Of a stretch of 64,000 bases of DNA, positions 2,304 to 57,941 are shown in pieces. Every line of letters begins with the position of its first letter. Position 1 is the stretch's first letter. Both the position numbers and the translations under genes were made by a program. The notes under the pieces were generated by a model. That model had not been told where the DNA came from. It searched no databases and was given only the letters and a program-made list of their open reading frames with translations. Origin of the DNA: Candidatus Sumerlaeaceae bacterium (GTDB lineage: Bacteria > Sumerlaeota > Sumerlaeia > Sumerlaeales > Sumerlaeaceae); contig JAIBAT010000063.1 in assembly GCA_019695055.1 (NCBI GenBank), forward strand, positions 6,220 through 70,219. Reading direction: 5' to 3'.

Positions 2304-3323
2304 CTAATCCTCATCTCTTTCGCGCAGCGATTCTGTGACGGCCTGCGATCCCCGTTCCCCACTGCCGCGAGCCACACGCCCCAGCCTGAGCAGGCGCTCA
2401 TAAAACGGTAGAAGCAACTGGGCCCGTTCCCATTCCGCGGGCGACGCGGCCGCATAGGCCGCGTCAAACGCACGGATGCGGTCGGGATCCGAAGCGCAGA
2501 CCCGGAAATGCACCGCGGCAATGTCCTGGGCCGGCGTTGCAAACTCGACACGGCTGTAGTCCACAAGGTGACAGGCCCCTTCGGCGCCATAGAGAATGTT
2601 CGCAAAGTGCAGGTCGCCGTGAATCAAGCTATAAGGTGGAAACTTGCCAAACTGTTCCTCGAACCCCCGAAACCACGCGCTGTGTTCCCTTGCTTCCACG
2701 CCGCTTAAGCGTCCTCCCTTTCGGGCCCGGCGCAGCTTTCGCTCGATGCCGCGAAGCGAGGAGAGAAAGAAGTCATTCGACCGAGGCTCACCGGGTGAAC
2801 CCCAGCGATCCGAGTAGATTCCGTGGAGTCGCCCCAATTGCACAGCGAGTTTCCCAAGGTAGTCGGGCGAAACATTCCACGGCCGTGTCATCTCCCCCTC
2901 AACAAACTCCTCGACCAGAATGACCGCGCCACATTGTTCCGGGTCATATTGAAAATCCACCAGCGCGGGCGCGTCGACACCATTCTCCTGAAGCAATTCC
3001 AGGATTCGCCGATGGCGTTCCGCATCGTGCAGCTCGCTCAGCGGGTAAAAGCGTATCACCGCTTTTTGATCACCAAAGGAAACAAACCACAGCCGCGACG
3101 AAACGCCCAGCGCGGGAATCTCAATCCGTGCATGCACGTCCTTTGCAATGTCGAGCTTGAGGCGCAGGTAATTGCGAACGTACATTTTCACTGCGCCAGC
3201 CACCTGCTCAAACGTGCGCGCCGACCGCCACGCCTTTCCGTTCAGGAATGGCGCCCAGCGTCGCGCGCTCAACATCAGTTGATGGCGTGTTTCGGACAGG
3301 ATGTCAAATAATTGAGAAGTCAT
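2304..3323 (-). CDS. phosphotransferase family protein (APH/choline-kinase-like kinase fold)
   Basis: Brenner-like motif LIHGDLHFANILY and HLVDYS; about 339 aa. Confidence 0.55.
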   Translation of the reverse strand: MTSQLFDILSETRHQLMLSARRWAPFLNGKAWRSARTFEQVAGAVKMYVRNYLRLKLDIAKDVHARIEIPALGVSSRLWFVSFGDQKAVIRFYPLSELHDAERHRRILELLQENGVDAPALVDFQYDPEQCGAVILVEEFVEGEMTRPWNVSPDYLGKLAVQLGRLHGIYSDRWGSPGEPRSNDFFLSSLRGIERKLRRARKGGRLSGVEAREHSAWFRGFEEQFGKFPPYSLIHGDLHFANILYGAEGACHLVDYSRVEFATPAQDIAAVHFRVCASDPDRIRAFDAAYAAASPAEWERAQLLLPFYERLLRLGRVARGSGERGSQAVTESLRERDED

Positions 3324-3358
3324 GTTCTTGGGACGGGGCTGGTGAAAATCGAAGCCGC

Positions 3359-4180: not shown

Positions 4181-4798
4181 GTGGTTTCGGGCACTTACAT
4201 AACAAAGGCGGGGGGCAGGCGTGCCTTCTCGCTCATCGAGTTGCTGGTGGTCATCGCCATCATGCTGATACTCACGGTTTTGGCCGTGGGCGCCTACGCC
4301 AATTTCAACAAGGCCCGCCGAATCCGCAGCTCCGCCGAATCCATCAATAGCATCTTCACCACCGCCCGGGCCTTCGCCATTTCCAAGAACCAATGGTATC
4401 GCGTGGTCTTCCAGTTCAAGAACCCAGACACCGGCGCCGAGGAATTCGCCTACTGGATCGACGAGATCGTCCGAAACACCAGTGCCAGCCCCTCCCCGCC
4501 AATTATCCAGCTTCCCAACGGGGTCATCACCCCCAAGGTCACCACTCCCGAATTCATGGATCAAAAGGTGCAGATCGAATCCATCTATGTGGACAACCTG
4601 GCTGACCCGGCAACGACCATAACCGCAAGCGCCGCGAATTACGCCGTCGTGCGGTTCCGGCCTGATGGTTCGTCGGACGCATCATCTGTCCACATCATCA
4701 GCCGTGCCACCGACCCCGCCGTGGATTCCAACTACTATACGATCAAGCTCTACAACCCCTCCGCGAAATCGAAAATCTATGCGGAAACGCGGAGGTAG
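4181..4798 (+). CDS. prepilin-type N-terminal cleavage/methylation domain protein (minor pseudopilin-like)
   Basis: GTG start; leader ...KAGGRRAFSLIELLVVIAIMLIL (class III signal-like, Ala at -1). Confidence 0.65.
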   Translation: MVSGTYITKAGGRRAFSLIELLVVIAIMLILTVLAVGAYANFNKARRIRSSAESINSIFTTARAFAISKNQWYRVVFQFKNPDTGAEEFAYWIDEIVRNTSASPSPPIIQLPNGVITPKVTTPEFMDQKVQIESIYVDNLADPATTITASAANYAVVRFRPDGSSDASSVHIISRATDPAVDSNYYTIKLYNPSAKSKIYAETRR

Positions 4799-5255
4799 CG
4801 CCGGCGTGCAACGTGACAACACATGGCTGCGCCGCGCAGTCCGGGCCTTCACGCTCATCGAGGTGCTTGTCAGCCTTGCCATCCTGCTGGCCGGCGTTGT
4901 GCCGATATTCTTCATCTTGCCCAACACCTTCCGCGCCCGCCAGGAGGCCGAATTCCTCACCAAGGCCGCCATGTTGGCGCAATGGAAGGCCGAGGAAATA
5001 CGCCGCGACGACGACACCTCGGGAACGCTCCTTGGCATCATCCAAAGCCGCACCACACCCACCACACCCATGCCGTTCACGGCGGAGTCGAAACTGAGCT
5101 ACAGCTTCAACGGACGGTCCATACTTTATGCGGATTTGCCGCCTTCGCCTCTGAATGACGCCGGCGTGGCCCGAATCATCATTTCGTTGACCCGGGTCGG
5201 CAATCCCCAACCATCACCCAGGGACGTGATCTATGAGTTGCGCTTTGCGTACTGA
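4779..5255 (+). CDS. prepilin-type pseudopilin-like protein
   Basis: MRKRGG...RRAVRAFTLIEVLVSLAILLAG; ATG at 4779 overlaps the upstream stop by 20 nt. Confidence 0.6.
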   Translation: MRKRGGSAGVQRDNTWLRRAVRAFTLIEVLVSLAILLAGVVPIFFILPNTFRARQEAEFLTKAAMLAQWKAEEIRRDDDTSGTLLGIIQSRTTPTTPMPFTAESKLSYSFNGRSILYADLPPSPLNDAGVARIIISLTRVGNPQPSPRDVIYELRFAY

Positions 5256-6186
5256 CGGCGCAGCCCGCCGCGCGCGGGCCTTCACGCTCATCGAGCTCCT
5301 CGTGGCCATTGCTGTTTGCATGGCTTTCCTGGGCGGCGCTGTCTTCACGTTCATCCAGATTGTCCGTGCTGGCGACCGCAGCCAGGCCCGCACCGAAGCC
5401 CTTGCCCAGGCGCGCCACGCCCTGGACACCATGGCCTCCGAGCTCAAGCAGGCCCGCTTTGGCCCACCCACTGCGTCTCCCATGAATCTGTTCGACGGCA
5501 AAACCGCCACTTTCCCGGGCAACCAGGGCAACCGCCTCGACGACGACGAGGATGGCCAGACCGACGAGGAGGACATTGATGGCCAGGCCAATTCCGGCTG
5601 GGCCGTGGGCGACGACAAGCATGTGCGCCTCGACAATGCCGCCGTTACACCCGTTTACGAACGAAAACAGTTCCTCGGCACCGCCGACTTGGACGATCAG
5701 CAGATTGACTATGACGTGAAGTTTGCCAACGCCGAGATTATCTTCCGCACCTTCCCAAATGTTTTTAATCCCACCTTTGGCATCCGTCAGGTGCGGTTTC
5801 TTCTCGGCACCTACGATGGCCAGACCAACGTGCTGCTACGCGAGGTCATCACGGACAAGGGCGGCGCCGCCGAATCCACCACCACATCTCCGCTCGCTTT
5901 CAATGTGGTTTCCTTCGGAGCACTTTTCTATAATTCCAATCCCGCATTCAGCACCCCCATGGGCAGCACCGGCTGGAGCAACTTCTGGAGCGCCGACGGC
6001 ATCCTGCCGGCCCTGGTGGAACTTCCGCCCACAGTTTACCTGACAGTCAGCGTCTACAGCGGCACCACGCCCCTCGCGATCCTGCCTCCCTCGAAACCCG
6101 TTGAGACCGTAACGCTCGGAACAGTCGTTGGCATCGAGGCCGTTCTCGCCGACGGCGACTATGCCCTGCAGCGCAACACCTACTGA
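5233..6186 (+). CDS. prepilin-type pseudopilin-like protein (larger, GspK/J-like size)
   Basis: MSCALRTDGAARRARAFTLIELLVAIAV...; overlaps the upstream gene by 23 nt. Confidence 0.6.
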   Translation: MSCALRTDGAARRARAFTLIELLVAIAVCMAFLGGAVFTFIQIVRAGDRSQARTEALAQARHALDTMASELKQARFGPPTASPMNLFDGKTATFPGNQGNRLDDDEDGQTDEEDIDGQANSGWAVGDDKHVRLDNAAVTPVYERKQFLGTADLDDQQIDYDVKFANAEIIFRTFPNVFNPTFGIRQVRFLLGTYDGQTNVLLREVITDKGGAAESTTTSPLAFNVVSFGALFYNSNPAFSTPMGSTGWSNFWSADGILPALVELPPTVYLTVSVYSGTTPLAILPPSKPVETVTLGTVVGIEAVLADGDYALQRNTY

Positions 6187-6672: not shown

Positions 6673-7758
6673 TCAGGCCAACTCTTCCTCAAACAGCGAA
6701 AGCTGCCCGTCCCCCGACGCCCGCCGAAACGCCTCCACAGACAGCGACGTGTCGCGCTGCACCAACCCGGCCCGCTTGCAAGCCAGCCCGAACAGCTTGT
6801 GGATGTTCTCCGCGTGCACCCCTTCGCCCCGCATACGCGCGCCAAACCGCGGATCGGTCAGCTTGCCGTCACGCATTTCCCGCAACCGGTTCATGACCTT
6901 CTCGCGCGCATCGGGCCGGTGCGTGGCCAGCCATTCCTCGAACATCTGTCCCACGCTGTAGGGGAGCCGCAAAATCGTGTAGTTGGCGAACTTCGCCCCC
7001 GCCCGCGCCGCCTCGCTGATGACCGACGGTATCTCGTGCTCGGTGAGCCCCGGAATGATGGGCGCCATCATGACCCCCACCGGGATCCCCGCCGCCGCCA
7101 GCTCCTCGATCGCCGCCAACCGCCCCGTTGGCGCCGAGGCCCGCGGCTCCAGGGTCCGCGCCAGCTCCGGATCCAGCGACGTGACCGACACGCACACCAC
7201 CGCCGCGTTATGCCTCGCCAGCTCGCCCAGCACATCAATGTCTCTCGTCACCAGCCGGCTTTTCGTGATGATCGCCACAGGGTTACGAAACTCCGCCATC
7301 ACTTCCAGGCACTGCCGCGTGATCCGCAGCCGTTTCTCCGCCGGTTGATACGGATCCGTCACACCGCTCATGGCGATCACCCGCGGCTTCCACCGCGGCG
7401 ACGACAACTCCTTCCGCAGCAGCCGCGGAGCATCCTCTTTCACCATGATGCGCGACTCGAAATCCAACCCCGACGAGAACCCAAGGTACTCGTGCGTCGG
7501 CCGGGCGTAGCAGTACACGCACCCATGCTCGCACCCGCGATAGGGGTTCAGCCCTGTATCAAACGGCACGTCCGGGCTGTCGTTGTGCGACAGCACACCC
7601 TTGGTCCGATCCTGGAAGAACTCCGTCGTGGGTGCCGGATCCGGGCACAGTCCCTCGACGGCCTCGCGCTCCACGTGGCGCTTGGCGAAACGGTTTCGCG
7701 GGTTGCCTGCGGTTCCCCGCCCGCGCAACGGGGAATGAATGGTGGTTATCGCGCTCAT
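6673..7758 (-). CDS. radical SAM protein, SplB-like DNA repair photolyase family (COG1533-like)
   Basis: CEHGCVYCYARPTHEYLGF cluster motif typical of the SplB/PA0069 family; 361 aa. Confidence 0.6.
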   Translation of the reverse strand: MSAITTIHSPLRGRGTAGNPRNRFAKRHVEREAVEGLCPDPAPTTEFFQDRTKGVLSHNDSPDVPFDTGLNPYRGCEHGCVYCYARPTHEYLGFSSGLDFESRIMVKEDAPRLLRKELSSPRWKPRVIAMSGVTDPYQPAEKRLRITRQCLEVMAEFRNPVAIITKSRLVTRDIDVLGELARHNAAVVCVSVTSLDPELARTLEPRASAPTGRLAAIEELAAAGIPVGVMMAPIIPGLTEHEIPSVISEAARAGAKFANYTILRLPYSVGQMFEEWLATHRPDAREKVMNRLREMRDGKLTDPRFGARMRGEGVHAENIHKLFGLACKRAGLVQRDTSLSVEAFRRASGDGQLSLFEEELA

Positions 7759-7763
7759 GATGT

Positions 7764-7779
7764 TAGAACTTATGTTCTA
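7764..7779. promoter_or_regulatory. Cheo-box-like palindrome TAGAAC-TTAT-GTTCTA (GAAC-N4-GTTC) beside the radical SAM start codon, with a third GTTCTAA half-site at 7786-7792
   Basis: Palindrome read directly; LexA of Gram-positive type binds GAAC-N4-GTTC (established knowledge). Confidence 0.35.
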
Positions 7780-7892
7780 CACGACGTTCTAATTCAAGGA
7801 AAATCGACATCCGCGCTTTTTTTGAGGGGGGCTTCCCTATGCCCCCACCCCGGGGGAATCACCGGTACCTTCCGCTTCCCCCGTTGGATCTG

Positions 7893-9367
7893 TTAGTGGC
7901 TTGTCCCGATTTTCGGCGGCTGGGCATCCGCATCCGTATCCATGTAGAAGCCCTCGTCGCTTGGCAGCAGCGGAGTCGCCGATTTCATCGCCGTCTGCAG
8001 GATCCAGTTCAGGGCCAGCGGCTTCTGGGCCTCCTTGCCGGCCGCCTCCAGGCGCTTCTGCAATTCCGCGACCTTCTCGGGATGCGCCGCGGCCACATTG
8101 TTCTTCTCGTAGGGATCCTCCGCAATGTTATAGAGGTCCACGCTCGTCGGAATCAGCGTGCGCCAGATGAGCTTCCAGTCACCCTGCCGCACGGCGCCCC
8201 GGAACGGCTCCACATTGTAGATGAACTCGCTGCGCGGTGACGGCTTGTTCTCCGCGATCGTCGCCCACACATTCTTGCCGTCCAGCGGCTTGCTCTTCGC
8301 CGTCGATGCGCCCGCCAGCTCTGCAAGCGTTGCATAGATGTCAACCGCATGGATCATCCCGGTCACCGTTTGCGGTTTGATATGCCCCGGCCAGTTCGCA
8401 AACGCGCAGACCAATGTGCCACCTTCAAAAAGCGAGCCCTTCCCGTCCCGGTATGAACCATTATCGCACGGCAGCGTGACTTTCGACATGTCCGCCATCT
8501 GGCCGGCAAACGCCGCGTTGCGCGTGCCGCCATTGTCGCTGTGGAATAGGATCAGCGTGTCATCGCGCAGGCCCTTCTTGTCCAGCGCCGTGACCACCTT
8601 GCCGATATTATCGTCCAGGCAGGTCACCATGCCGGCGTATGTGCGGCGCGTGGGGTCCTCGATGTTCTTGTAGCGGTCAATATACTCCTGCGGCGCCTGG
8701 TACGGCGTGTGCGGAGCGTTGAACGTCAGGTAAAGATAAAACGGCTGCTTGCCGTCCTGCTTGTCGATATATTTGACGGCATCGTCCCCCAGCAGGTTCG
8801 TCGTATAGCCCTTCTCCCGCACCGGCTTGTTATCGCGAAACCAATCCAGCACCCCGTGCTCGTCATGCGTGAAGTAGTCCAACTCCCCGATCATCGCGCC
8901 ATACTGGTAGTCAAAACCCCGCTGCTTCGGCCAATACTTCCTGTCCGCGTGGCCCAGGTGCCACTTGCCAATGATCGCCGTCTTGTAGCCCGCGTCGCTC
9001 AGGCACTGCGGCATCAGGTACTCGCTCGTGTCCAGCCCGTAGCCCGCCGCCGTGGGAATGACAATTGTCTGGAGACCATAGCGAAATGGATAGCGCCCCG
9101 TCATCAGCGCCGCCCGCGTCGGCGTGCACATCGGCTGCACGTAGAACTGCGCCAGCTTCGCGCCCCCATCGGCCAGCGCGTCCATGTTGGGCGTCTTGAT
9201 GTCCTTGCAGCCGTTGAACCCGACATCCTTCCACCCCAGGTCATCCGCGACGATGTGGACAATGTTGGGCTTCCTGGCCGCACTGCCCGCAGATGTTTCC
9301 TGCGCGGTCTGGCAAATAGCCACCGCCGACATCATCAAACACAGCCCTGCGATCAAAGGCCGATTCA
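7893..9367 (-). CDS. arylsulfatase (sulfatase family, secreted)
   Basis: Signal peptide MNRPLIAGLCLMMSAVA; sulfatase signature CTPTRAALMTGRY; VHIVADDLGW. Confidence 0.8.
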
Positions 9368-9601
9368 TGGGGGGGGAATCCTTTTCGTGGTCAAATTTTT
9401 CTGCCTGGCTAAAAGGAGTATAATAGCGTTGCCCCCAATCGCTATTCCCATTGATGACTGTCCTGCTCAATTTCGAACCAAACCGAGGCAAATCCGCCGT
9501 CCGGATCCGAAGAGAGAGTTGAAAGCCAGGAAAGAATATGTTCTTCATACAGCCAGGGAACTTGGTTGGGAGATAAAGAAGAAGTAAGGCGCCGTAAGAA
9601 A

Positions 9602-9826
9602 TTACCCTCTTCTCAGAATCCGCTCATATTCATCGTGCAATCCGATCCACACCCAGGTGAAATCCTCGCCTTCTTCAACGGCAGGGGCTCGATGGGAAAG
9701 GTCCACTCGCACGGACCATAAGGCGCCGACTTTCTTTAATTGCAGGCTGGGGTGTCTCGGATCGGCTTTCAGCAGTTCAAATGCCTTGTCGGCCCGCTTC
9801 CGGATACTCGGGCGAAAGGTCCTCAT
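9602..9826 (-). CDS. RelE/ParE-family type II toxin-like protein
   Basis: 74 aa; ...LWSVRVDLSHRA...EDFTWVWIGLHDEY aligns with the RelE/ParE C-terminal block (yRlRvgdyRviY..d....v.il.igHRkdvY). Confidence 0.5.
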   Translation of the reverse strand: MRTFRPSIRKRADKAFELLKADPRHPSLQLKKVGALWSVRVDLSHRAPAVEEGEDFTWVWIGLHDEYERILRRG

Positions 9827-9859
9827 AGTTCTTCCAAAACCGCTCTGTTGCGCGGTGCA

Positions 9860-10060
9860 TCAGAGGTTTTTCAAAGTGCCTTTGGTTTTGGCGTCAGCGG
9901 CTTCCTTGATCAGAAAGTCCAATTTACCTGCGGCGGAATCGGATGCGATTTGAGCATCCCATTTGTTCCAATCATGTTCGAGGAACCAGCGACGAAATTC
10001 GCTGTAGTCCTGATCCCGCAGATTGCCTACGGCCTTTTCGATTTCACTAAGTGTCGTCAT
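9860..10060 (-). CDS. putative antitoxin / addiction-module component (upstream partner of the RelE/ParE-like gene)
   Basis: MTTLSEIEKAVGNLRDQDYSEFRRWF...; small acidic helical protein 33 nt upstream of the toxin on the same strand. Confidence 0.4.
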   Translation of the reverse strand: MTTLSEIEKAVGNLRDQDYSEFRRWFLEHDWNKWDAQIASDSAAGKLDFLIKEAADAKTKGTLKNL

Positions 10061-10267
10061 GTGGTTTTCTTGCTGTTTTGCAAATACCATGGTAAGCGGC
10101 CAATTCATTCAGGGAAAGGCTGTCGAAAAACCAACCGTGTGAGATCTGGGAACAGCGTTTCCCGTTGCACTTTGCCACCACCTCCAACAATAGTAGTCGT
10201 GACAGCTAAGACACTTTCGAGAGCGATGGCTGCCACAACTATTCTGGAGATCAGCATGTGTTGAGCG

Positions 10268-10759
10268 TTGCTGGGGAGCGGTCTCATGTGGCCTAAAAAG
10301 GGAAGTGGGGCAAACACACAAATGGATTGGGCTCGAATGCCCAGCTCCATGTTGCAGGATTTATTGTATAATCCTGCGCCACGCACAGCATTGCGCCGGC
10401 TTTGCTTTGACATTACACAACCCCTATGGCGTCGGATACTATTTTGCCGAAGGAACAATGAAAGACTCCGAGACCTTCTTTTGAAATACGACTACGAGCC
10501 GTTGGCAACGGTCCGGAGAACAGACCTTAAATTTGCCTTCAACAAAGACTTCCTTCAAGAGTGTCTCGCCCAGAGATCGGAACCCGAACACACTGGTTTA
10601 TTGTTTCTCTTGAATTGGTCTGCGGACAAGGATCTAATCGATTATGCCATGACAATTGCTGGCGACCAGTCAGACCCGGCGCACAGGATTGCCAAACTGA
10701 TACTCGAAGAAGACTGCTGGTGTCCCGGTGGGAAGGCGAGTCGGAGTAAAATCGGCTAA
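10268..10759 (+). CDS. hypothetical protein (low-GC islet; start uncertain)
   Basis: ORF in a region of reduced GC; no recognisable motif. Confidence 0.3.
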   Translation: MLGSGLMWPKKGSGANTQMDWARMPSSMLQDLLYNPAPRTALRRLCFDITQPLWRRILFCRRNNERLRDLLLKYDYEPLATVRRTDLKFAFNKDFLQECLAQRSEPEHTGLLFLLNWSADKDLIDYAMTIAGDQSDPAHRIAKLILEEDCWCPGGKASRSKIG

Positions 10760-11066
10760 GTACTGAGTTTCGAAACCATCTTCATGCAAAGGTCCCTTTT
10801 GCCTTTGTCACAATTGCCAATTGGCCTTCTCGGATTAAGAAGCCATCTGGGAAGCCATGATTCCTGCAAACGGTGCCAGGTCGGTTCGCGGTTCTCAGCG
10901 TAAGGGTCGACAGTCCCAATTCTGGGACGCTCAAATTCGAGGATGCTTCACCTTTTCCCCAATTAACTTTTGGCGCCCACCTGCCAACACCACCCATCGC
11001 CCCGTTCCCTCGGTTTCCTTCGAGCCTTCGTGTCAGGACTTTGCCTTTCCCCCTCTGTGCCAATCT

Positions 11067-11123
11067 GCGAAATCTGTGGAGACGCTTCCTTAACTCAAAA
11101 TTGAGAATTGAGAATTTGAGATT
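11067..11123. repeat. dispersed repeat copy A (GAAATCTGTGGA...CAAAATTGAGAATTGAGAATTTGAGATT)
   Basis: About 75-80% identical over about 55 bp to 16129-16190; contains TTGAGAA heptad tandem. Confidence 0.4.
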
Positions 11124-11655
11124 ATGGGTCTACAAGGGGTTGCAAGGGGTCGTGGGGGAATAGGCAAACCCGTTCCCCCGTGCTACACCCATCCTCAGTT
11201 AAATTGCCCGATCTCCATTCCCGTCACCATCGCACGAATTACAAAGGAATGGGGATACAGCCCCCGCACCGGGCATTGTTCTTTGACATGACCAACAGGC
11301 CAGAAGGCCAACCCGATTCTCATTCGCCCAGCCGGCGTGTTTCGTGGGCAAGAAAGTGCACTTTCACGCACATTTGGACCGATTTTAGTACGCACAATTT
11401 GGCAATTCAAATCGGTTTAAGTGCGCTCTTAAATCATAAGAAACATTGATAATAAAGGACTTGTGCAAAAAGTGCATACCCCCCCTCCCCCTCCCCCCCG
11501 TTCGTAGTTAAGGGTTTCAGGCGGTCTCTCCCAAATCGCGTCGCACTTTCAACAGTTGCAACCTTACTCCGCCGTTCTTCCTCGGCACCCCAGCGCTCCC
11601 CGCCCCGAGTTTCCCGTTGCACACTCCAGCCCCGGTAGATTGGACTCAGCACTCC

Positions 11656-14653: not shown

Positions 14654-16027
14654 TCAGTACTTATAAACGCTGCCGCCGATATACTCGCGCATGAGGCTGT
14701 TGCGCGGGATGGCCTCCTCGTCGCGGATGGGCTCGACGGGCTCGAGGAGGTCATGGACCCGCTTGGCGCGGATGTAGGCGTCCAGCCGCGCGGGGGTGTC
14801 GTCATAAGCCGCGATGATGGACTCCATGTGTGGGAACAGGTATTTCTTGTGCACAATCAGTTCGTAGGGCAGCGAGCCATTGATGATGTGGTCGGCCTGG
14901 CCGATGAAGGGCACGATGTACTTCATCTCGCTGCGCCGAACATAGTGCCAGTGCCCCACGGTTTGGTCCGGCTGGTAGTGGCGGTGCCAGCTATCGCGTA
15001 CCATGCGGCGCAGCATGCGCAGGTCAGCCCAGCGCACGAACTCGCCGCGGGCGTCGCGGATCTGGCACAGGGCCTCGATGTAGATCTTGAATTTGAAATC
15101 ATTCGGCACGCTGGACGTCATTGGCTTGTAAAGGCCATGCAGGCTGTCCAGCAGCAGCACCTGGTTTGGCTTGAGTGAGAACGGCACCGTCTTCTCCTGC
15201 CGCAGCCCCGTCTTGAAGTCATAGATCGGTGTCTGGATCTCCTTCCCCTTCAGCAGGTCCGCCAGGTGCTGATTGATGAGCGCGAGGTCCAGCGCCTCGG
15301 GGCGCTCGAAGTCATAATCGCCAAACGCATCCTGCGGGTGCGTCTCAAGGTTGTGGAAATAGTTGTCCAGGTTCAGCGCCACGACCTCGATGCCCTTTTC
15401 CGCGAGGCGCTCGCTCATCTTGATCGTTGTCGTCGTCTTTCCGGAACTGGAGGGCCCCGCGATAATGATGATGCGAAGGTCGTTACGGCGCTTCAGCACA
15501 CGATCTGCCATGCGGTCGATTTCGGCGTGGTAGTTGGCTTCCGCCTCCTGGATCAGCCCGCCAATGCGCCCATCCCGCACCTGCTCATTCAGGCGCTCGA
15601 TGCTGTCGCACTCGTGGGCCACGTTCCAGGTAAACACCTGCCAAAGGGTTTTGTAGGGGATGGTGTCGTTGACGACGATCTGCTCGTCCTTTTCCTCGCG
15701 CTGGCGGGCGTGCTCGGTGCGATATTCGCGGTAGGCCGTGGCCACGTTCTTGTGCCCCTCGGCGTCCAGGGTCCGTACCACCATGTCCTGGATGTTCTCG
15801 ACGGTGGGGTAATCGCCGTTGCTGTAGGCCTCGGAAAGTCGCTGCACCACAATGTCCGACAACCGCTCCGCCAGGCTGCGGTCTTCCAGCTTCTGGCTGA
15901 GTTGCGCCTTGTAGATGGCGTGGGTGATGCGCTCCTGGTCGAATACGACCTGCACGCCGCTGCGCTTGACGATATACTCGGGGTGGCTGGTGACGCCCAT
16001 GGCCCCCTCCTTCGCAAAGTCTGGCAC
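14654..16027 (-). CDS. ATP-cone domain protein fused to a PRK/uridine-kinase-like P-loop nucleoside kinase domain
   Basis: N-terminal IVKRSGVQVVFDQERI (ATP-cone-like); P-loop IIIIAGPSSSGKTTTT...LNLDNYF typical of the uridine kinase/phosphoribulokinase family. Confidence 0.55.
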   Translation of the reverse strand: MPDFAKEGAMGVTSHPEYIVKRSGVQVVFDQERITHAIYKAQLSQKLEDRSLAERLSDIVVQRLSEAYSNGDYPTVENIQDMVVRTLDAEGHKNVATAYREYRTEHARQREEKDEQIVVNDTIPYKTLWQVFTWNVAHECDSIERLNEQVRDGRIGGLIQEAEANYHAEIDRMADRVLKRRNDLRIIIIAGPSSSGKTTTTIKMSERLAEKGIEVVALNLDNYFHNLETHPQDAFGDYDFERPEALDLALINQHLADLLKGKEIQTPIYDFKTGLRQEKTVPFSLKPNQVLLLDSLHGLYKPMTSSVPNDFKFKIYIEALCQIRDARGEFVRWADLRMLRRMVRDSWHRHYQPDQTVGHWHYVRRSEMKYIVPFIGQADHIINGSLPYELIVHKKYLFPHMESIIAAYDDTPARLDAYIRAKRVHDLLEPVEPIRDEEAIPRNSLMREYIGGSVYKY

Positions 16028-16128: not shown

Positions 16129-16190
16129 TGTGAAATCTGTGAATGGCTTCTTCTTTCAATTGAGAATTGAGAATTTGGAACTGAGAATTG
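16129..16190. repeat. dispersed repeat copy B, directly upstream of the dcd start codon
   Basis: GTGAAATCTGTGAATGG...CAATTGAGAATTGAGAATTTGGAACTGAGAATTG; 19/20 match with copy A in the heptad core. Confidence 0.4.
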
Positions 16191-16196
16191 TTTTCC

Positions 16197-16730
16197 ATGA
16201 TTCTCTCGGGACTCGAAATTAAGAAGCGACTCGGCGGCGACATCGACATCCAGCCCTTCGACGAGAAACTGTTGAACCCAAACAGCTACAACCTGCGGCT
16301 CCACGACGAGCTTCTCGTCTATGAGAACCACGAACTCGATATGCGCCGCGAGAACCGAGCCGTCTCACTCAAGATTCCCGCGGAGGGGCTGCTTCTTGAA
16401 CCGGGGCGGCTTTACCTCGGTCGCACTCTCGAGTTCACGCGCACGGACAACCTCGTGCCAATGCTGGAGGGGCGATCCAGCGTTGGGCGGCTTGGCCTGT
16501 TCGTCCACATCACTGCAGGCTTCGGAGATGTAGGCTTCCGCGGCTACTGGACCCTCGAGATGCTCTGCGTCCAGCCGGTCCGTGTGTATGCCGGCGTCCA
16601 AATCTGCCAGATTTTCTACCACACAGTGGAGGGCGATTTCGTCCCCTACAAGAGCGGCAAGTACCAGAACAACTCGGGCATCCAGCCCAGCATGATGTTC
16701 CGGGATTTTGAAAAGAGTGATAATTCCTGA
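16197..16730 (+). CDS. dcd: dCTP deaminase
   Basis: MILSGLEIKKRL...NPNSYNLRL...GRSSVGRLGLFVHITAGFGDVGFRGYWTLEM matches the Dcd signature. Confidence 0.85.
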   Translation: MILSGLEIKKRLGGDIDIQPFDEKLLNPNSYNLRLHDELLVYENHELDMRRENRAVSLKIPAEGLLLEPGRLYLGRTLEFTRTDNLVPMLEGRSSVGRLGLFVHITAGFGDVGFRGYWTLEMLCVQPVRVYAGVQICQIFYHTVEGDFVPYKSGKYQNNSGIQPSMMFRDFEKSDNS

Positions 16731-16753: not shown

Positions 16754-18223
16754 ATGCTGATTGATACCCATGCCCACCTTCACGGCGAGGAGTTTGACAC
16801 CGACCGCGCGGAGGTGCTTGCCCGGGCCCGCGAGGCGGGGGTCGAGCATATCGTTCTCATCGGCGTGGATGTGGACGACAGCCTCAAGGCCGCTGGAATG
16901 GCCAACGCCGATCCGCTTTTCTACGTGGCGGCCGGCGTTCATCCGCACGAGGCGGCCAAATGGAACGACGCGGAGGCCGCGCGCCTTCGCGACATCGTTC
17001 AGCGCGAACCCCGCATCGTGGCGGTGGGGGAGATCGGTTTGGATTACCACTACGATTTCGCCCCGCGCGAGAAGCAGCGGGAAGCGTTCCTGGCCCAGCT
17101 CGAAATTGCCAGGGAAGCTCGCAAGCCTGTGGTCATTCACTGCCGCGAGGCATATGACGATGTGCTGGCCATTCTGCGCGATTTTCATGGTGACCCACTG
17201 CCCCATGTGACGCCCGCCGTGCCCGGAAGTCTGGACGAACCACCGCCTACCTGCCCCACGCCTGGCTGCCCCCATCACCTTTCCGCAGGCATCATGCATT
17301 GCTACTTTGGCAGCGTGGAGCAGGCGGCCGCCTTCACGCATCTTGGATATGCCCTCGGCATTGGCGGGTCCTCCACTTTTAAGAAGGCCGAGGAGTTGCA
17401 TGAGGTCATCCGCCAGACTCCCATCGAGCATCTCGTGCTGGAGACCGACGCGCCCTACATGGCGCCCGTTTCCTTTCGCGGTAAACGCAATGAATCGGCC
17501 CATTTGCCCCTCATTGCCGCGCGCATCGCCGAGCTGAAGGGGATGACCGTGGATGACGTTGTCCGCGTGACCCGCCACAATGCGCTGGCCATGTTCCAAC
17601 TCCATGACGACGAGCCGCCCGCCATCGCCTATGTCATTCGGAACAGCCTTTACATCAACCTTACCAATCGCTGCTCGGCGCTTTGCGTGTTCTGCGACCG
17701 ATTGGGGGACGCATCGGTAAAGGGGCATAACCTGCGCATGCACAAGGAGCCGGAAGCGGCCGAGGTGATCGCAGCCATCGAGGCCCAGGGCGGCGCGGCG
17801 AAGTTCGATGAGGTTGTGTTCTGCGGTTACGGCGAGCCAACCCTGCGGTTGCCGGTCCTTCTGGAGGTCGCCCGGTGGCTGAAAGGCCCCGGCGGCGCCC
17901 GCCGCGTTCGCCTGAACACGAACGGCCACAGCGATCTCATCAACCAGCACGCGACCCTCCCCGAAATGGAGGGCCTGATTGATGCCGCCAGTATCAGCCT
18001 CAATGCTCCCGATGAGGCGACCTACAACTGGATTGTGCGACCTTTTGACCGCAAACGGGCCTTTGGGGCTGTGGTTGACTTCATCCGGGCGGCCCCCCGG
18101 CACATCCCCGACGTTACGGCCACCGCCGTGGGCATCCCGGGGCTCGACGTTCCAGCCACGGAGGCCCTCGCCCGCGAATTGGGGGTCAGCTTCCGCCTCC
18201 GCATTTTTAATGACGTGGGCTAA
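16754..18223 (+). CDS. TatD-family hydrolase fused to a TatD-associated radical SAM domain
   Basis: N-terminal MLIDTHAHLHGEEFDTDR...(TatD); C-terminal INLTNRCSALCVFCDR (CxxxCxxC) ...VVFCGYGEPTL; single uninterrupted 489-aa ORF. Confidence 0.65.
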   Translation: MLIDTHAHLHGEEFDTDRAEVLARAREAGVEHIVLIGVDVDDSLKAAGMANADPLFYVAAGVHPHEAAKWNDAEAARLRDIVQREPRIVAVGEIGLDYHYDFAPREKQREAFLAQLEIAREARKPVVIHCREAYDDVLAILRDFHGDPLPHVTPAVPGSLDEPPPTCPTPGCPHHLSAGIMHCYFGSVEQAAAFTHLGYALGIGGSSTFKKAEELHEVIRQTPIEHLVLETDAPYMAPVSFRGKRNESAHLPLIAARIAELKGMTVDDVVRVTRHNALAMFQLHDDEPPAIAYVIRNSLYINLTNRCSALCVFCDRLGDASVKGHNLRMHKEPEAAEVIAAIEAQGGAAKFDEVVFCGYGEPTLRLPVLLEVARWLKGPGGARRVRLNTNGHSDLINQHATLPEMEGLIDAASISLNAPDEATYNWIVRPFDRKRAFGAVVDFIRAAPRHIPDVTATAVGIPGLDVPATEALARELGVSFRLRIFNDVG

Positions 18224-23949: not shown

Positions 23950-24447
23950 TTAGAACGGAATGTCGTCCTGGACGTTCGAGTCCTGGAAATCGAGGCCATC
24001 GGAAGGTGAAGCTCCGCCGGACTGGCGCGCCGCAGGACGGCTGCCGCCGGAACGGGCCGGGCCGGAAGCCGGAGCGCTGTCGCCAGCGTCGCCGCCTTCT
24101 TCGCCGCCACCCGCGCGCTGTGGAACGTCAAAACCCGTTACACGCTCGGCAACTATGCGAATCTTCGACTGCTTCTGTCCGTCCTTCTCCCAGGTATCCT
24201 GCTTGAGGCGTCCGTCCACGTAGACTGGGCGACCTTTGCGCAGCGTCTCCGCGGCGCGCTCGGCCGTCTTACCCCAAGTCTCAACGTCTATGAAGGTCGT
24301 CTCGTCCCGCCATTCGCCATTCTTGTCCTGAAACCGGCGATTAACCGCCACGGACAATGTGGTAACCGCAGCGCCCGAAGGCAGATACTTTGTTTCCGGA
24401 TCCCGGGTCAAGCGCCCGGTGACCATGACTTTGTTGATGGAAAGCAT
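23950..24447 (-). CDS. ssb: single-stranded DNA-binding protein
   Basis: OB-fold N-terminus MLSINKVMVTGRLTRDPE...; Gly-rich tail ending DDIPF. Confidence 0.85.
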   Translation of the reverse strand: MLSINKVMVTGRLTRDPETKYLPSGAAVTTLSVAVNRRFQDKNGEWRDETTFIDVETWGKTAERAAETLRKGRPVYVDGRLKQDTWEKDGQKQSKIRIVAERVTGFDVPQRAGGGEEGGDAGDSAPASGPARSGGSRPAARQSGGASPSDGLDFQDSNVQDDIPF

Positions 24448-25530: not shown

Positions 25531-25943
25531 CGCCATCCAGGACCCACCTTCTGTTTGTGTGCGTGGAGAACTCCAACCGTTCCCAGATGGCCGAGGCCTT
25601 TGCCCGGTTCCACGGTGGCGACGTCATCAAGGCCCACAGCGCAGGCTCCCGCCCCTCGGGAATCATAAACCCGAACGCAACTACCGCGATGGCTCAGCGC
25701 GGCATCAGTCTTAAGTCCCATCACTCCAAGGGCCTCGCGGACCTGCCCCCTCTGGAATGGGACTGGGTCATTACCATGGGCTGCGGCGATTCCTGCCCCA
25801 ATCTGCCAGCCCGCCATCGCGCCGATTGGGCCCTCCCAGACCCGCGCAACATGGACCCCGGTGACTTCAATCAGGTGCGCGACGAAATCGAACGCCGTGT
25901 CGTCGATCTTCTTCAATCAATCAAACAGGAGACCAATACGTGA
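25527..25943 (+). CDS. arsC: arsenate reductase (LMW-PTP family, thioredoxin-coupled)
   Basis: LLFVCVENSNRSQMAEAF (CX5R P-loop); TTG start overlapping the arsR stop (TTGA). Confidence 0.7.
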   Translation: MTPSRTHLLFVCVENSNRSQMAEAFARFHGGDVIKAHSAGSRPSGIINPNATTAMAQRGISLKSHHSKGLADLPPLEWDWVITMGCGDSCPNLPARHRADWALPDPRNMDPGDFNQVRDEIERRVVDLLQSIKQETNT

Positions 25944-35097: not shown

Positions 35098-36138
35098 TCA
35101 CTTCGGTTTCTCCCCACTTTTGGACTGGTCCACGACCATTGATCTGGACGTTTCCGCGTCCATTGCATTTTTCAGGGAGTGGATTACGTCGTTCCACTGC
35201 AGCCGCACATAGGAGTACTCTGGGCTGTCAAAGTCATTGTATTTGTCGACAAGCACAAGCAAGTCCCGCGCGTCGGAAGTATGCCCATCCTTGATCCACG
35301 CCTGTGCGACCATCAGTTCGGGCCAGGGCGAGCCAATATTGAGTACACCGAGGGGCGTCTTGCTGGCCGACTGCCGCCAGGTATAAAGTTCCTCCAGTTT
35401 TGCAATGGCTTCGGTGCGGTTGCTTGTCTTCCAACTCTTCTTTTGCCATTCGTGTCCAAACCATTCCTGAATGGCAAATGTCCCGGAGCGGAAACCCGTT
35501 CCGAAAAAGACCAGAAATAGGCACGCATAGGACGCCCCATTGACCATCAGCGACCACCGGAGCGACTTGCCCCAGTTCCCGGTCAGCTTGTTGTAAATCA
35601 CGGACTCATAAAACGTGGTCAGGCAGAACGCGGCAAATAGCAGCACATAAACCTGAACCACAAACATCGGAATGGATGGCATGGGCAGCAGAAATGCGAA
35701 GAAAACCACCAGCAGCCCAACCGAGAGAGCCAGCTCCCTCGCGAGACCCCATTTGAGGTGCTTTCCGATCCTGATACCGGCGTCTGACGCTATGATGAAG
35801 GCAACGAGCAACTCAAATGGATGGAACATTATGCCGACGCCGATAACCGTTGTGAGCAAGTTCGCCAGGGAAACAACCTTGAGTGCCTTCCCAAACGGGT
35901 TCTTCAGTGCAAACGCAAGAACCGCGGTCTCAATGGCTATGACGCCGAAGAAGGAGGCGAGAAACACCATCCACCCGCCAATGACTGTGGGCGAAAATAC
36001 GAAAATAGTGGGAAGCGGGACATTTGCGCAAGCCGGCGTCGGCGCCAGAACCAGTGTTCCAGCGATTGCGATACACCAAAAACCACGGAATAGACTCATT
36101 GGCGCACCTACAGGAAGACGTAACTTGCGTATCCGCAT
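35098..36138 (-). CDS. hypothetical polytopic membrane protein
   Basis: Signal/TM N-terminus MRIRKLRLPVGAPMSLFRGFWCIAIAG; multiple hydrophobic helices. Confidence 0.45.
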   Translation of the reverse strand: MRIRKLRLPVGAPMSLFRGFWCIAIAGTLVLAPTPACANVPLPTIFVFSPTVIGGWMVFLASFFGVIAIETAVLAFALKNPFGKALKVVSLANLLTTVIGVGIMFHPFELLVAFIIASDAGIRIGKHLKWGLARELALSVGLLVVFFAFLLPMPSIPMFVVQVYVLLFAAFCLTTFYESVIYNKLTGNWGKSLRWSLMVNGASYACLFLVFFGTGFRSGTFAIQEWFGHEWQKKSWKTSNRTEAIAKLEELYTWRQSASKTPLGVLNIGSPWPELMVAQAWIKDGHTSDARDLLVLVDKYNDFDSPEYSYVRLQWNDVIHSLKNAMDAETSRSMVVDQSKSGEKPK

Positions 36139-43562: not shown

Positions 43563-44234
43563 TTACGGCGTTGTGTAGAAGTATGCCACCGTTCCCAATT
43601 TGTCGCCACTGCCTTGCGTCCGGAAAACATTGCCGAGGCTGACGGTGCCATTAGTTGGATCATAGTCGCGGTAAACACGCTGGCCCACTACGGCAACTGC
43701 GCCTGGAGTGTTGAACTCATCGCGATCTGGCCCTATGGAGTACATCAACCAGGCCCCTGCCAGCTTCGTGGCTTCGGTGAAGTTGTTCACGTTCGGGGGG
43801 GCGAGAGACGGCGTGACAAAGTAGTACTTAAAGTTGAAGTAGATCTGCCGACGCTCCACGAGGTTTAACGGAGGCGTCAGGGCGCCAACTGTCGTAGAGC
43901 GGAATGGATCCTCGGGCAGGCTGGTCATGTAGGAGATCGGGGTGGTGATATAGTTCGGAACGCGGGAGTGAAACGGTGGGGTCACCAGAGTACCCCACGT
44001 CAGGGTGCCTCCAAATGTCGTGTCCCAAGCTGGCGGATAGGCATTGTTGTCTACTGCATAGGCCTCCAGCCCCGTGGCCAGCGACCTCAAATCTGCCTTG
44101 TTACGACTAACCTTTGAGCGCACTTGCGCCTCAAGGAAGTTGGGAACCGCTATCGCCGCGAGAATCGCAATGATTGCCACGACGATGAGCAATTCGATAA
44201 GGGTAAAACCACGACAACTAATAGGTTTTCTCAT
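43563..44234 (-). CDS. GspG-like prepilin-type pseudopilin (tandem paralog)
   Basis: MRKPISCRG|FTLIELLIVVAIIAILAAIAVPNFLEAQVRSKVSRNKADLRSLATGLEAYAVDNNAYPP; same RBS context. Confidence 0.7.
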   Translation of the reverse strand: MRKPISCRGFTLIELLIVVAIIAILAAIAVPNFLEAQVRSKVSRNKADLRSLATGLEAYAVDNNAYPPAWDTTFGGTLTWGTLVTPPFHSRVPNYITTPISYMTSLPEDPFRSTTVGALTPPLNLVERRQIYFNFKYYFVTPSLAPPNVNNFTEATKLAGAWLMYSIGPDRDEFNTPGAVAVVGQRVYRDYDPTNGTVSLGNVFRTQGSGDKLGTVAYFYTTP

Positions 44235-44960: not shown

Positions 44961-46148
44961 CTACCCCATCGCCGCGGCGAGGGGTTTCCAGCCGCTCAGG
45001 TCGTTAAGGCGGTTCATCATAAGGTTGTACTGATCGCCGTAAAGCCTGCGGATCGTATCCTCATTGATGCGGCGCGGCTTCTGGTGCCACAGCCGGTACA
45101 CGCAGTTGCCCATGGAGATGTTGCGGTCCGTTTCCAGGCTCTGCTCCAGGCGGCCAAAGTCGCTTTGTCGCAGGTAATTCTTTTCCGCGTAGGTGATGTT
45201 GAGGATTTCGTAAATTGGGAACACACCCGAGCCATCCACGGCCTTTAGCAATTGCTGGCTGATGATGCCGCGCAGAGTCGTGGCAAGCCGCGCGTGGAAT
45301 TCCCCCTCGCCGCCGCTGGCCGCGCCCGCGCCCAGCACGATGTGCTGCAATCGGCTAATAGCCGGGATGGCGCCGATGGCGTGAAGCGTGCAGAACGACA
45401 TGATACCCGTTTCCGCCGCATTCAGGGCAATTGTGGCTGTCTCCTGGTCGCGCACTTCGCCGATGAGCAGCACGTCCGGGTTCTTGCGCACGCTCGCGCG
45501 AAGCGCGTGGGCGAAGTCCGGCGTGTCGCGACCGATTTCGCGCCGTGTCACCAGGCACTTGTCGCTGTGGATCGTGTATTCCACAGGGTTCTCAATCGTC
45601 GTGATGGATCCCAACCGGTTGTGATTGATGTAATCCAGCATCGCGGCGATGGTCGTCGTCTTGCCGGAGCTGGTTTCTCCCGCCACGATGATGAGTCCGC
45701 TCTCCGTCGCGATGAGTTTCTTCAGCATGTCGGCATCCACGCCGATCTTATCGATCGGGATCAGGTTGGCGCGCAGGTACCGCATGACGAGGTAGTAGCG
45801 GCGGCCATTTGCGAAACCCACGTTGATGCGGCCCGTCGCATCTTCAAAGTCCATGGAGAAATCGCTGTCGGCATGCTTGCGGAATTCGTCGAGCTGGTCC
45901 TGCGCCAGCGCAAATTCCATGATCTCCTCGATGTCGCGCCGCGTCACCACGGGGTGATCCTTGCTCTCGATGGGGAGCAAATCCCCCTGGATGCGCACCC
46001 GGGGGCGTTCCCCCTCCATCAGGTGGATATCCGAGCCGTTCTTGTCCTTTACGAGCGCCACGATGCGCTCGAGCAGAAGCATTCCGCCCGAAGTCGGGCT
46101 GCCTGAGCCCTGGTGTTCGTGGGTCATCCCCTCTGGGGCATCCTGCAT
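44961..46148 (-). CDS. pilT: type IV pilus retraction ATPase PilT/PilU family
   Basis: GETSSGKTTT Walker A; ITTIENPVEY...DVLLIGEVRDQETA...AETGIMSFCTLHA. Confidence 0.75.
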   Translation of the reverse strand: MQDAPEGMTHEHQGSGSPTSGGMLLLERIVALVKDKNGSDIHLMEGERPRVRIQGDLLPIESKDHPVVTRRDIEEIMEFALAQDQLDEFRKHADSDFSMDFEDATGRINVGFANGRRYYLVMRYLRANLIPIDKIGVDADMLKKLIATESGLIIVAGETSSGKTTTIAAMLDYINHNRLGSITTIENPVEYTIHSDKCLVTRREIGRDTPDFAHALRASVRKNPDVLLIGEVRDQETATIALNAAETGIMSFCTLHAIGAIPAISRLQHIVLGAGAASGGEGEFHARLATTLRGIISQQLLKAVDGSGVFPIYEILNITYAEKNYLRQSDFGRLEQSLETDRNISMGNCVYRLWHQKPRRINEDTIRRLYGDQYNLMMNRLNDLSGWKPLAAAMG

Positions 46149-57488: not shown

Positions 57489-57941
57489 GGTGATACTCCT
57501 TTTTGACTAAGATGGGAGCATTATGCACGGGGAAATGGCTTTGCCTATTCCCCCACGACCCCTTAGAACCCCTTAGAGACCCATAACTTTCAGTTCTGAG
57601 TTTTGAGTCCTGAGTTCTGAGTTCGGAGTTAAAGGCAAAAGTTGACCACCAAATCACCAAAGCACCAAAAGCACTCAAAATGAAGGGCGCGAAGAAAAGG
57701 CGGTGAACCGAGGAGCACGCGGAGGACGAAGAGAAAGAGAATTGGGTGGGTTGCGAGTTGCTTGTACGATTTAATTGGGGAAAACGTCAAGCAGCCCCGA
57801 ATTTGAGGCCTCTTAAAGACCCAAAAACTCAATACACAGAAGCGCCAAGACGGTGGGCGTGATATTGACAGCGGATTTGGTTGCGTTTGGATGGCTAACG
57901 ATGCAAGTACTGACGCATTAAGGGTGGAGGCCGATTAGAAA

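Follow-up and report, generated by a model that had tools for sequence, protein, structure and literature searches.

The 64,000-nucleotide (64-kb) stretch of Candidatus Sumerlaeaceae DNA considered here, referred to as the window, holds a perfect inverted repeat right beside the start codon of a radical SAM gene. A sequence-only reading of this DNA had taken the repeat for a LexA operator in front of a DNA repair gene related to spore photoproduct lyase (SPL). Is the repeat an SOS operator, and what kind of enzyme would it control?

The radical SAM gene and its product

The gene lies on the minus strand (6673-7758, ATG at 7756-7758) and encodes a protein of 361 aa that is 100% identical to MBX7244889.1, listed as 'PA0069 family radical SAM protein' of Candidatus Sumerlaeaceae bacterium, encoded on a contig of 130 kb and the single member of its protein cluster. 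Pfam returned the radical SAM core only. Among the NCBIfam models, NF033668 (PA0069 family) scored 468.9 bits against a cutoff of 360, with residues 12-356 aligned to profile positions 1-348, followed by a sub-threshold match to NF038135 (Rv2578c family) with 227 bits against a cutoff of 430. The CxxxCxxC context described earlier is present as C76-EHG-C80-VY-C83 (CEHGCVYC, codons at 7510-7533 on the minus strand), and this radical SAM cluster motif is unchanged across 26 homologues. With the family cutoff exceeded and the motif in place, the protein is a full-length member of the PA0069 family.

No SPL family model is found among the NCBIfam matches at E≤0.001, and phmmer against the SPL chains of the PDB gave E-values of 0.14-0.48, which do not indicate membership at the sequence level. 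The AlphaFold model of the protein (pLDDT 74, cluster loop of low confidence) finds its best solved match in the SPL structure 4FHC, that is SplB, likewise a radical SAM CxxxCxxC enzyme, with a TM-score of 0.53-0.56 over ~309 aligned columns and E 1.2e-6. The radical SAM structure that ranks next reaches a TM-score of 0.40. Identity to 4FHC is 16-17%, with an E-value of 0.14 in the sequence comparison. An SPL-like fold is predicted by the model, and 'SPL-like fold' is the accurate label on this basis, because 4FHC is the best structural match yet sequence-level membership is absent. Spore photoproduct lyase proper could be ruled out, as no SPL model appeared in NCBIfam and the resemblance is confined to the fold (16% identity). 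The proposed membership in the SPL-like (COG1533) repair family holds insofar as the PA0069 family is the 'splB' or COG1533 of the SOS literature; it does not extend to SPL itself.

A second radical SAM protein related to DNA or nucleotides is encoded at 16754-18223 (plus strand), where a single ORF of 489 aa fuses a TatD-family nuclease (TIGR00010) to a 'TatD-associated radical SAM' domain (TIGR04038). It stands beside a dCTP deaminase and an ATP-cone plus uridine-kinase-like gene (neighbours at 14654-16027, minus strand, and 16188-16730, plus strand) and carries no LexA-like box.

The palindrome and its proposed promoter context

A gap of 134 bp separates the radical SAM gene from the stop codon of a sulfatase gene (7893-9548, minus strand). 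Starting from the radical SAM gene, the plus strand reads CAT GATGT TAGAAC TTAT GTTCTA CACGAC GTTCTAA TTCAAGG; in gene orientation the region is ccTTGAATtaGAACgtcgtgtaGAACataaGTTCtaacatcATG. The perfect 16-bp palindrome TAGAAC-TTAT-GTTCTA described earlier is confirmed at 7764-7779, with the half-sites TAGAAC (7764-7769) and GTTCTA (7774-7779) around the spacer TTAT. An extra T at 7763 turns the left half into TTAGAAC. The core GAAC-N4-GTTC at 7766-7777 (GAACTTATGTTC) shows zero mismatches and is an exact match to the most widespread LexA motif. The palindrome had been placed on the start codon, 3-4 nt from the ATG. The measured gap is 5 nt, or 4 nt if T 7763 is counted, so that the repeat adjoins the ATG (7758-7756) instead of covering it.

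A third half-site, GTTCTAA, follows 6 nt further on at 7786-7792, exactly as reported before, and might serve as an auxiliary half-site. It repeats 7774-7779 in direct orientation with a period of 12 bp and pairs with TTAGAAC at 7763-7769 as a perfect inverted repeat of 7 nt (spacer 16 nt). The spacing of 12 bp between second and third half-site is awkward for two LexA dimers. With 8 nt between GTTC 7774 and GTTC 7786, the direct-repeat LexA motif of Alphaproteobacteria, GTTC-N7-GTTC, is not formed. The half-sites are also oriented opposite to those of the Verrucomicrobia motif TGTTC-N4-GAACA, and the arrangement GTTC-N4-GAAC is thus not present either.

The extended LexA consensus of Bacillus is CGAACRNRYGTTYC. 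Compared with this consensus, which may not be that of the host clade, AGAACTTATGTTCT bears A/T rather than C/G at the outer positions, and its first spacer base is a T in place of a purine. The A/T flanks of the core likewise differ from the C/G found in both the Bacillus and the Actinobacteria consensus.

How much of this could be expected by chance? The window contains 13 perfect inverted repeats of 6+6 nt whose halves are 4 nt apart, close to the prediction from base composition, and palindromy alone is not unusual here. The core GAAC-N4-GTTC was found twice in 64 kb with 1.18 expected and is not enriched; the second copy, at 36048, lies, judging from the sequence, within a minus-strand gene that appears to encode a membrane protein. 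These counts would fit a chance palindrome in an AT-rich promoter region, or else a decaying relic, a box transferred together with the gene from a lineage using GAAC-N4-GTTC and ignored by the LexA of its new host. For the relic, the closest homologues, spread over many phyla at 60-65% identity, are compatible with horizontal transfer. On the other side, the probability of the 8-base core landing in this one 134-bp, AT-poor intergenic region is ~0.002, and the full set of 12 specified bases should turn up 0.0016 times in 64 kb. An additional exact copy of the 7-mer half-site GTTCTAA no more than 30 bp away would arise with a probability of ~0.004. An unselected, AT-rich perfect palindrome of 16 bp should, moreover, not persist in a stretch with 63% G+C. 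Chance or a relic is unlikely in view of these values. The weight of the site comes from a specific sequence in a specific place, neither from its palindromy nor from counts over the window.

Conservation among close relatives gives no further guidance. The nearest orthologues are 60-65% identical, and the best relatives in 185,579 species genomes and the JGI metagenomes 58-63%. They belong to other phyla and the palindrome box is absent in front of them, so that there is no phylogenetic footprint. In the top protein match (P0002) a scaffold N-gap lies exactly upstream of the gene.

The half-site TTAGAAC is over-represented in the window, with 7 copies against 2.47 expected. Two of the seven belong to the site described here and the remaining five are isolated half-sites, one within tRNA-Asp, one at the ssb stop codon and three elsewhere. 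At 3315-3328, AGAAGTCATGTTCT deviates from AGAAC-N4-GTTCT by one core mismatch, and an APH-family kinase gene (2304-3323, minus strand) has its start codon in the spacer of this sequence. The site is probably not an operator: the preceding gene, a cupin gene (lyxose-isomerase-like), stops only 35 nt before it, and matches with a single mismatch are as frequent as chance predicts. Three short TGAGTTC direct repeats are found in an intergenic stretch at 57590-57630.

The palindrome lies between the ATG and a hexamer resembling a -35 box, TTGAAT (7792-7797, minus strand), and hence in a promoter-proximal position, if the promoter itself is correctly placed. TTGAAT was recognized by eye and by analogy with two orthologous loci of Elusimicrobia (L007 and L024, see below), and its 3' end is overlapped by the third half-site (7786-7792). 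Candidates for the -10 element are CATAAG, ATAAGT and TAAGTT (7767-7774, minus strand), which would lie inside the palindrome, 17-19 nt after TTGAAT. Since a strict scan for consensus sigma-70 promoters and terminators between 7600 and 8000 returned no match, we infer these elements rather than observe them. The radical SAM ATG is not preceded by a Shine-Dalgarno sequence and follows the weak -10-like element by 8-10 nt, which together suggests an mRNA that is leaderless or has a very short leader.

This layout also bears on a possible role of the repeat in RNA. As a hairpin UAGAAC-AUAA-GUUCUA in the 5'-UTR it could modulate translation or stability, and the repeat is indeed able to form a stem of 5-6 bp located 5 nt upstream of the AUG. 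The predicted hairpin is weak, with a centroid energy of -3.8 kcal/mol and a z-score of -1.55 for the whole region, and 15 of 200 shuffled sequences fold as well; nor is there a Shine-Dalgarno sequence that could be sequestered. Should the -35-like box be genuine, the transcript would begin within or beyond the repeat and would probably not contain the complete hairpin. A function at the RNA level is thus very improbable.

Further upstream in the same intergenic gap, at 7814-7846, a GC hairpin GGGGGC-N8-GCCCCC is found with a T7 run before it on the plus strand and an A7 run after it on the minus strand; on neither strand does it have the form of a canonical terminator that could serve the sulfatase gene. 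A low-GC stretch at 9600-11600 (0.525 versus about 0.59) contains small tandem ORFs on the minus strand (9602-9826 and 9860-10108), which have no Pfam or NCBIfam match and resemble a toxin-antitoxin pair in their layout. The prepilin N-terminal methylation motif recurs in several genes at 4181-6186 and 43563-44234 (pseudopilin cluster), and a T2SS/T4P ATPase is encoded at 44961-46148.

LexA boxes in front of orthologous genes

To place the site in the context of its gene family, 160 orthologous loci were compared, half of them (80) taken from species-representative genomes and the other 80 from metagenomes. In the region from -250 to +40 we counted exact matches to the cores of four classes of LexA motif, and the rest of each locus served as background. 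An exact core of a known class was present upstream in 51 of the 160 loci, with ~2.5 expected. The most frequent class was GTTC-N7-GTTC, with 17 loci in the genome set (0.23 expected) and 17 in the metagenome set (0.34 expected). CTGT-N8-ACAG occurred at 4 loci (0.05) and 1 locus (0.27), GAAC-N4-GTTC at 5 (0.46) and 2 (0.21), and GTTC-N4-GAAC at 2 (0.41) and 5 (0.55), respectively.

In the genome set the classes largely follow taxonomy: GTTC-N7-GTTC is mostly found in Alphaproteobacteria, CTGT-N8-ACAG in Beta- and Gammaproteobacteria, GAAC-N4-GTTC in Elusimicrobia and KSB1, and GTTC-N4-GAAC in Verrucomicrobia. The Verrucomicrobia-type arrangement TGTTC-N4-GAACA was seen at L016, L019, L089, L090, L097, L118 and L122. 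Exceptions to the taxon rule occur in Planctomycetota. In one metagenome-assembled genome of this phylum (L011; JAEUIB010000498.1, 2266-3010), lexA and the PA0069-family gene are oriented divergently, and GAAC-N7-GAAC (2901-2915) lies between their starts. A second locus (L033) also carries GAAC-N7-GAAC and a third (L004) the CTGT-N8-ACAG motif typical of Gammaproteobacteria, so that orthologues within Planctomycetota differ in their class of LexA motif.

Parallels to the window site come from two metagenome-assembled genomes of Elusimicrobia. L007 (about 100-190) shows TTGACT-17-TAGAAT-tGAACagATGTTC, in which the LexA box GAACagATGTTC directly follows the promoter elements and holds the start codon within its spacer; L024 (about 2940-2990) shows TTGATAtcGAACagttGTTCgatTATACTgtggcATG. 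At both loci GAAC-N4-GTTC is located inside a clear -35/-10 promoter, few bases from the ATG or on it. Judged by their sequences these are clear leaderless SOS promoters, and their layout appears to be the same design as that of the window site.

In the literature, LexA control of COG1533/splB was reported for Actinobacteria and for Proteobacteria of the alpha, beta and gamma classes (PMC4951493), and splB is predicted to be one of the three operons that make up the core LexA regulon of Verrucomicrobia (Erill et al. 2016, PMC4951493) as well as a part of the SOS network of Bacteroidetes (PMC8565304). The Verrucomicrobia case concerns the same gene family in a related environmental lineage, and extra half-sites, tandem or degenerate, were described there (PMC4951493), similar to the third half-site of the window. 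The motif TGTTC-N4-GAACA, on the other hand, is the mirror image of GAAC-N4-GTTC. For P. aeruginosa, Cirz et al. 2006, as cited in bioRxiv 10.1101/2022.03.14.484287, count PA0069 as one of 15 SOS genes. It belongs to the same protein family as the window gene (NF033668) and is, according to that citation, SOS-induced, whereas Pseudomonas LexA uses CTGT-N8-ACAG and not GAAC-N4-GTTC. Both the published regulons and the orthologous loci compared above show the family recurring in SOS regulons. The PA0069/splB family is among the most consistently LexA-boxed genes in bacteria, and a LexA-type core before a radical SAM gene of this kind is therefore expected rather than surprising.

Mycobacterial SOS boxes are of the GAAC-N4-GTTC type. 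In M. tuberculosis, Rv2578c/Rv2579 corresponds to LexA ChIP-seq peak 20 and shows RecA-dependent induction (PMC3381160). Its SOS box is similar to the window site in motif class and in its position before a COG1533 radical SAM gene of a sister family. Rv2578c has a family of its own, NF038135, while the window protein stays below the cutoff of that model (430) and belongs to the PA0069 family. The two sites further differ in their flanks (TC...GA in M. tuberculosis, TA...TA in the window), in the third half-site present in the window, in the phylum and in the kind of evidence, which is ChIP-seq for M. tuberculosis and sequence here.

Proposed regulation and its meaning for Sumerlaeota

Does the host possess the repressor? 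Neither lexA nor recA was found in the 64-kb window by tblastn with LexA and RecA of E. coli. Classical SOS genes are likewise missing from the window according to Pfam scans of 40 ORFs, with the exception of the housekeeping gene ssb (23950-24447), which lies in an rpsF-ssb-rpsR operon. No AGAAC-N4-GTTCT with up to two mismatches is located directly before ssb, and a two-mismatch match is found at 25539, 9 nt upstream of the first ORF of the operon. Among 16 Sumerlaeota genomes, 14 are recorded with lexA (K01356) in a supplementary table of PMC8092238; members of the phylum thus usually have the repressor.

A description of a Sumerlaeota LexA motif was not found in the literature searched. 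In some Verrucomicrobia the LexA proteins have diverged recognition helices and no recognisable motif (PMC4951493). Together with the three half-sites in inverted plus direct arrangement, unlike a standard single LexA box, this would leave room for another dimeric transcription factor using GAAC/GTTC half-sites, possibly one that binds three sites or acts as a tetramer. No regulator gene is adjacent to the palindrome, however, the core is exactly the LexA motif, and the gene family is controlled by LexA across phyla. We regard a different factor as improbable.

Taken together, the palindrome is probably an SOS operator of the GAAC-N4-GTTC class that controls the PA0069-family radical SAM gene in Candidatus Sumerlaeaceae, and the host LexA would accordingly be expected to recognize this motif. 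The earlier proposal of a LexA operator of this type before a COG1533 radical SAM gene is supported by the exact core, the LexA record of the family, the boxes at the orthologous loci and the occurrence of lexA in most of the Sumerlaeota genomes listed. The claim that a non-canonical repair enzyme is thereby placed in the SOS regulon stands only in part: placement in the regulon is supported, and the enzyme is not non-canonical, as the place of its family among SOS genes was already established.

In the proposed mechanism, a LexA dimer binds TAGAAC-TTAT-GTTCTA between the -35-like TTGAAT and the ATG and would then cover the likely -10 element and the transcription start of the leaderless or short-leader mRNA, so that RNA polymerase would be kept off the promoter. 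Upon DNA damage, self-cleavage of LexA stimulated by RecA would free the promoter and the radical SAM enzyme with its SPL-like fold would be made, presumably for a role in DNA repair. The third half-site, touching the -35-like box, may stabilize the binding of LexA.

A more far-reaching reading of the third half-site treats GAAC-N4-GTTC-N8-GTTC as a composite operator, in which the palindrome is combined with a direct repeat only one base off GTTC-N7-GTTC, the class seen upstream of the Alphaproteobacteria orthologues and at two Planctomycetota loci. We consider this a speculative idea with little likelihood. LexA motifs were proposed to evolve by rearrangement of the same monomer sites (Erill et al. 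2016, PMC4951493). If the composite operator were real, it would be a living intermediate of such a rearrangement, and the LexA of Sumerlaeota might bind both geometries.

Neither LexA control of this radical SAM family nor the motif GAAC-N4-GTTC is new, each being already well established from several phyla. All that the site adds is Sumerlaeota as a host lineage and, implicitly, the class to which the LexA motif of this lineage probably belongs. The understanding of the SOS system is unchanged by a LexA operator at this position. If it is real, one more phylum would have the PA0069/Rv2578c/splB radical SAM family under SOS control, which would strengthen the published view of this enzyme as a near-universal core SOS gene.
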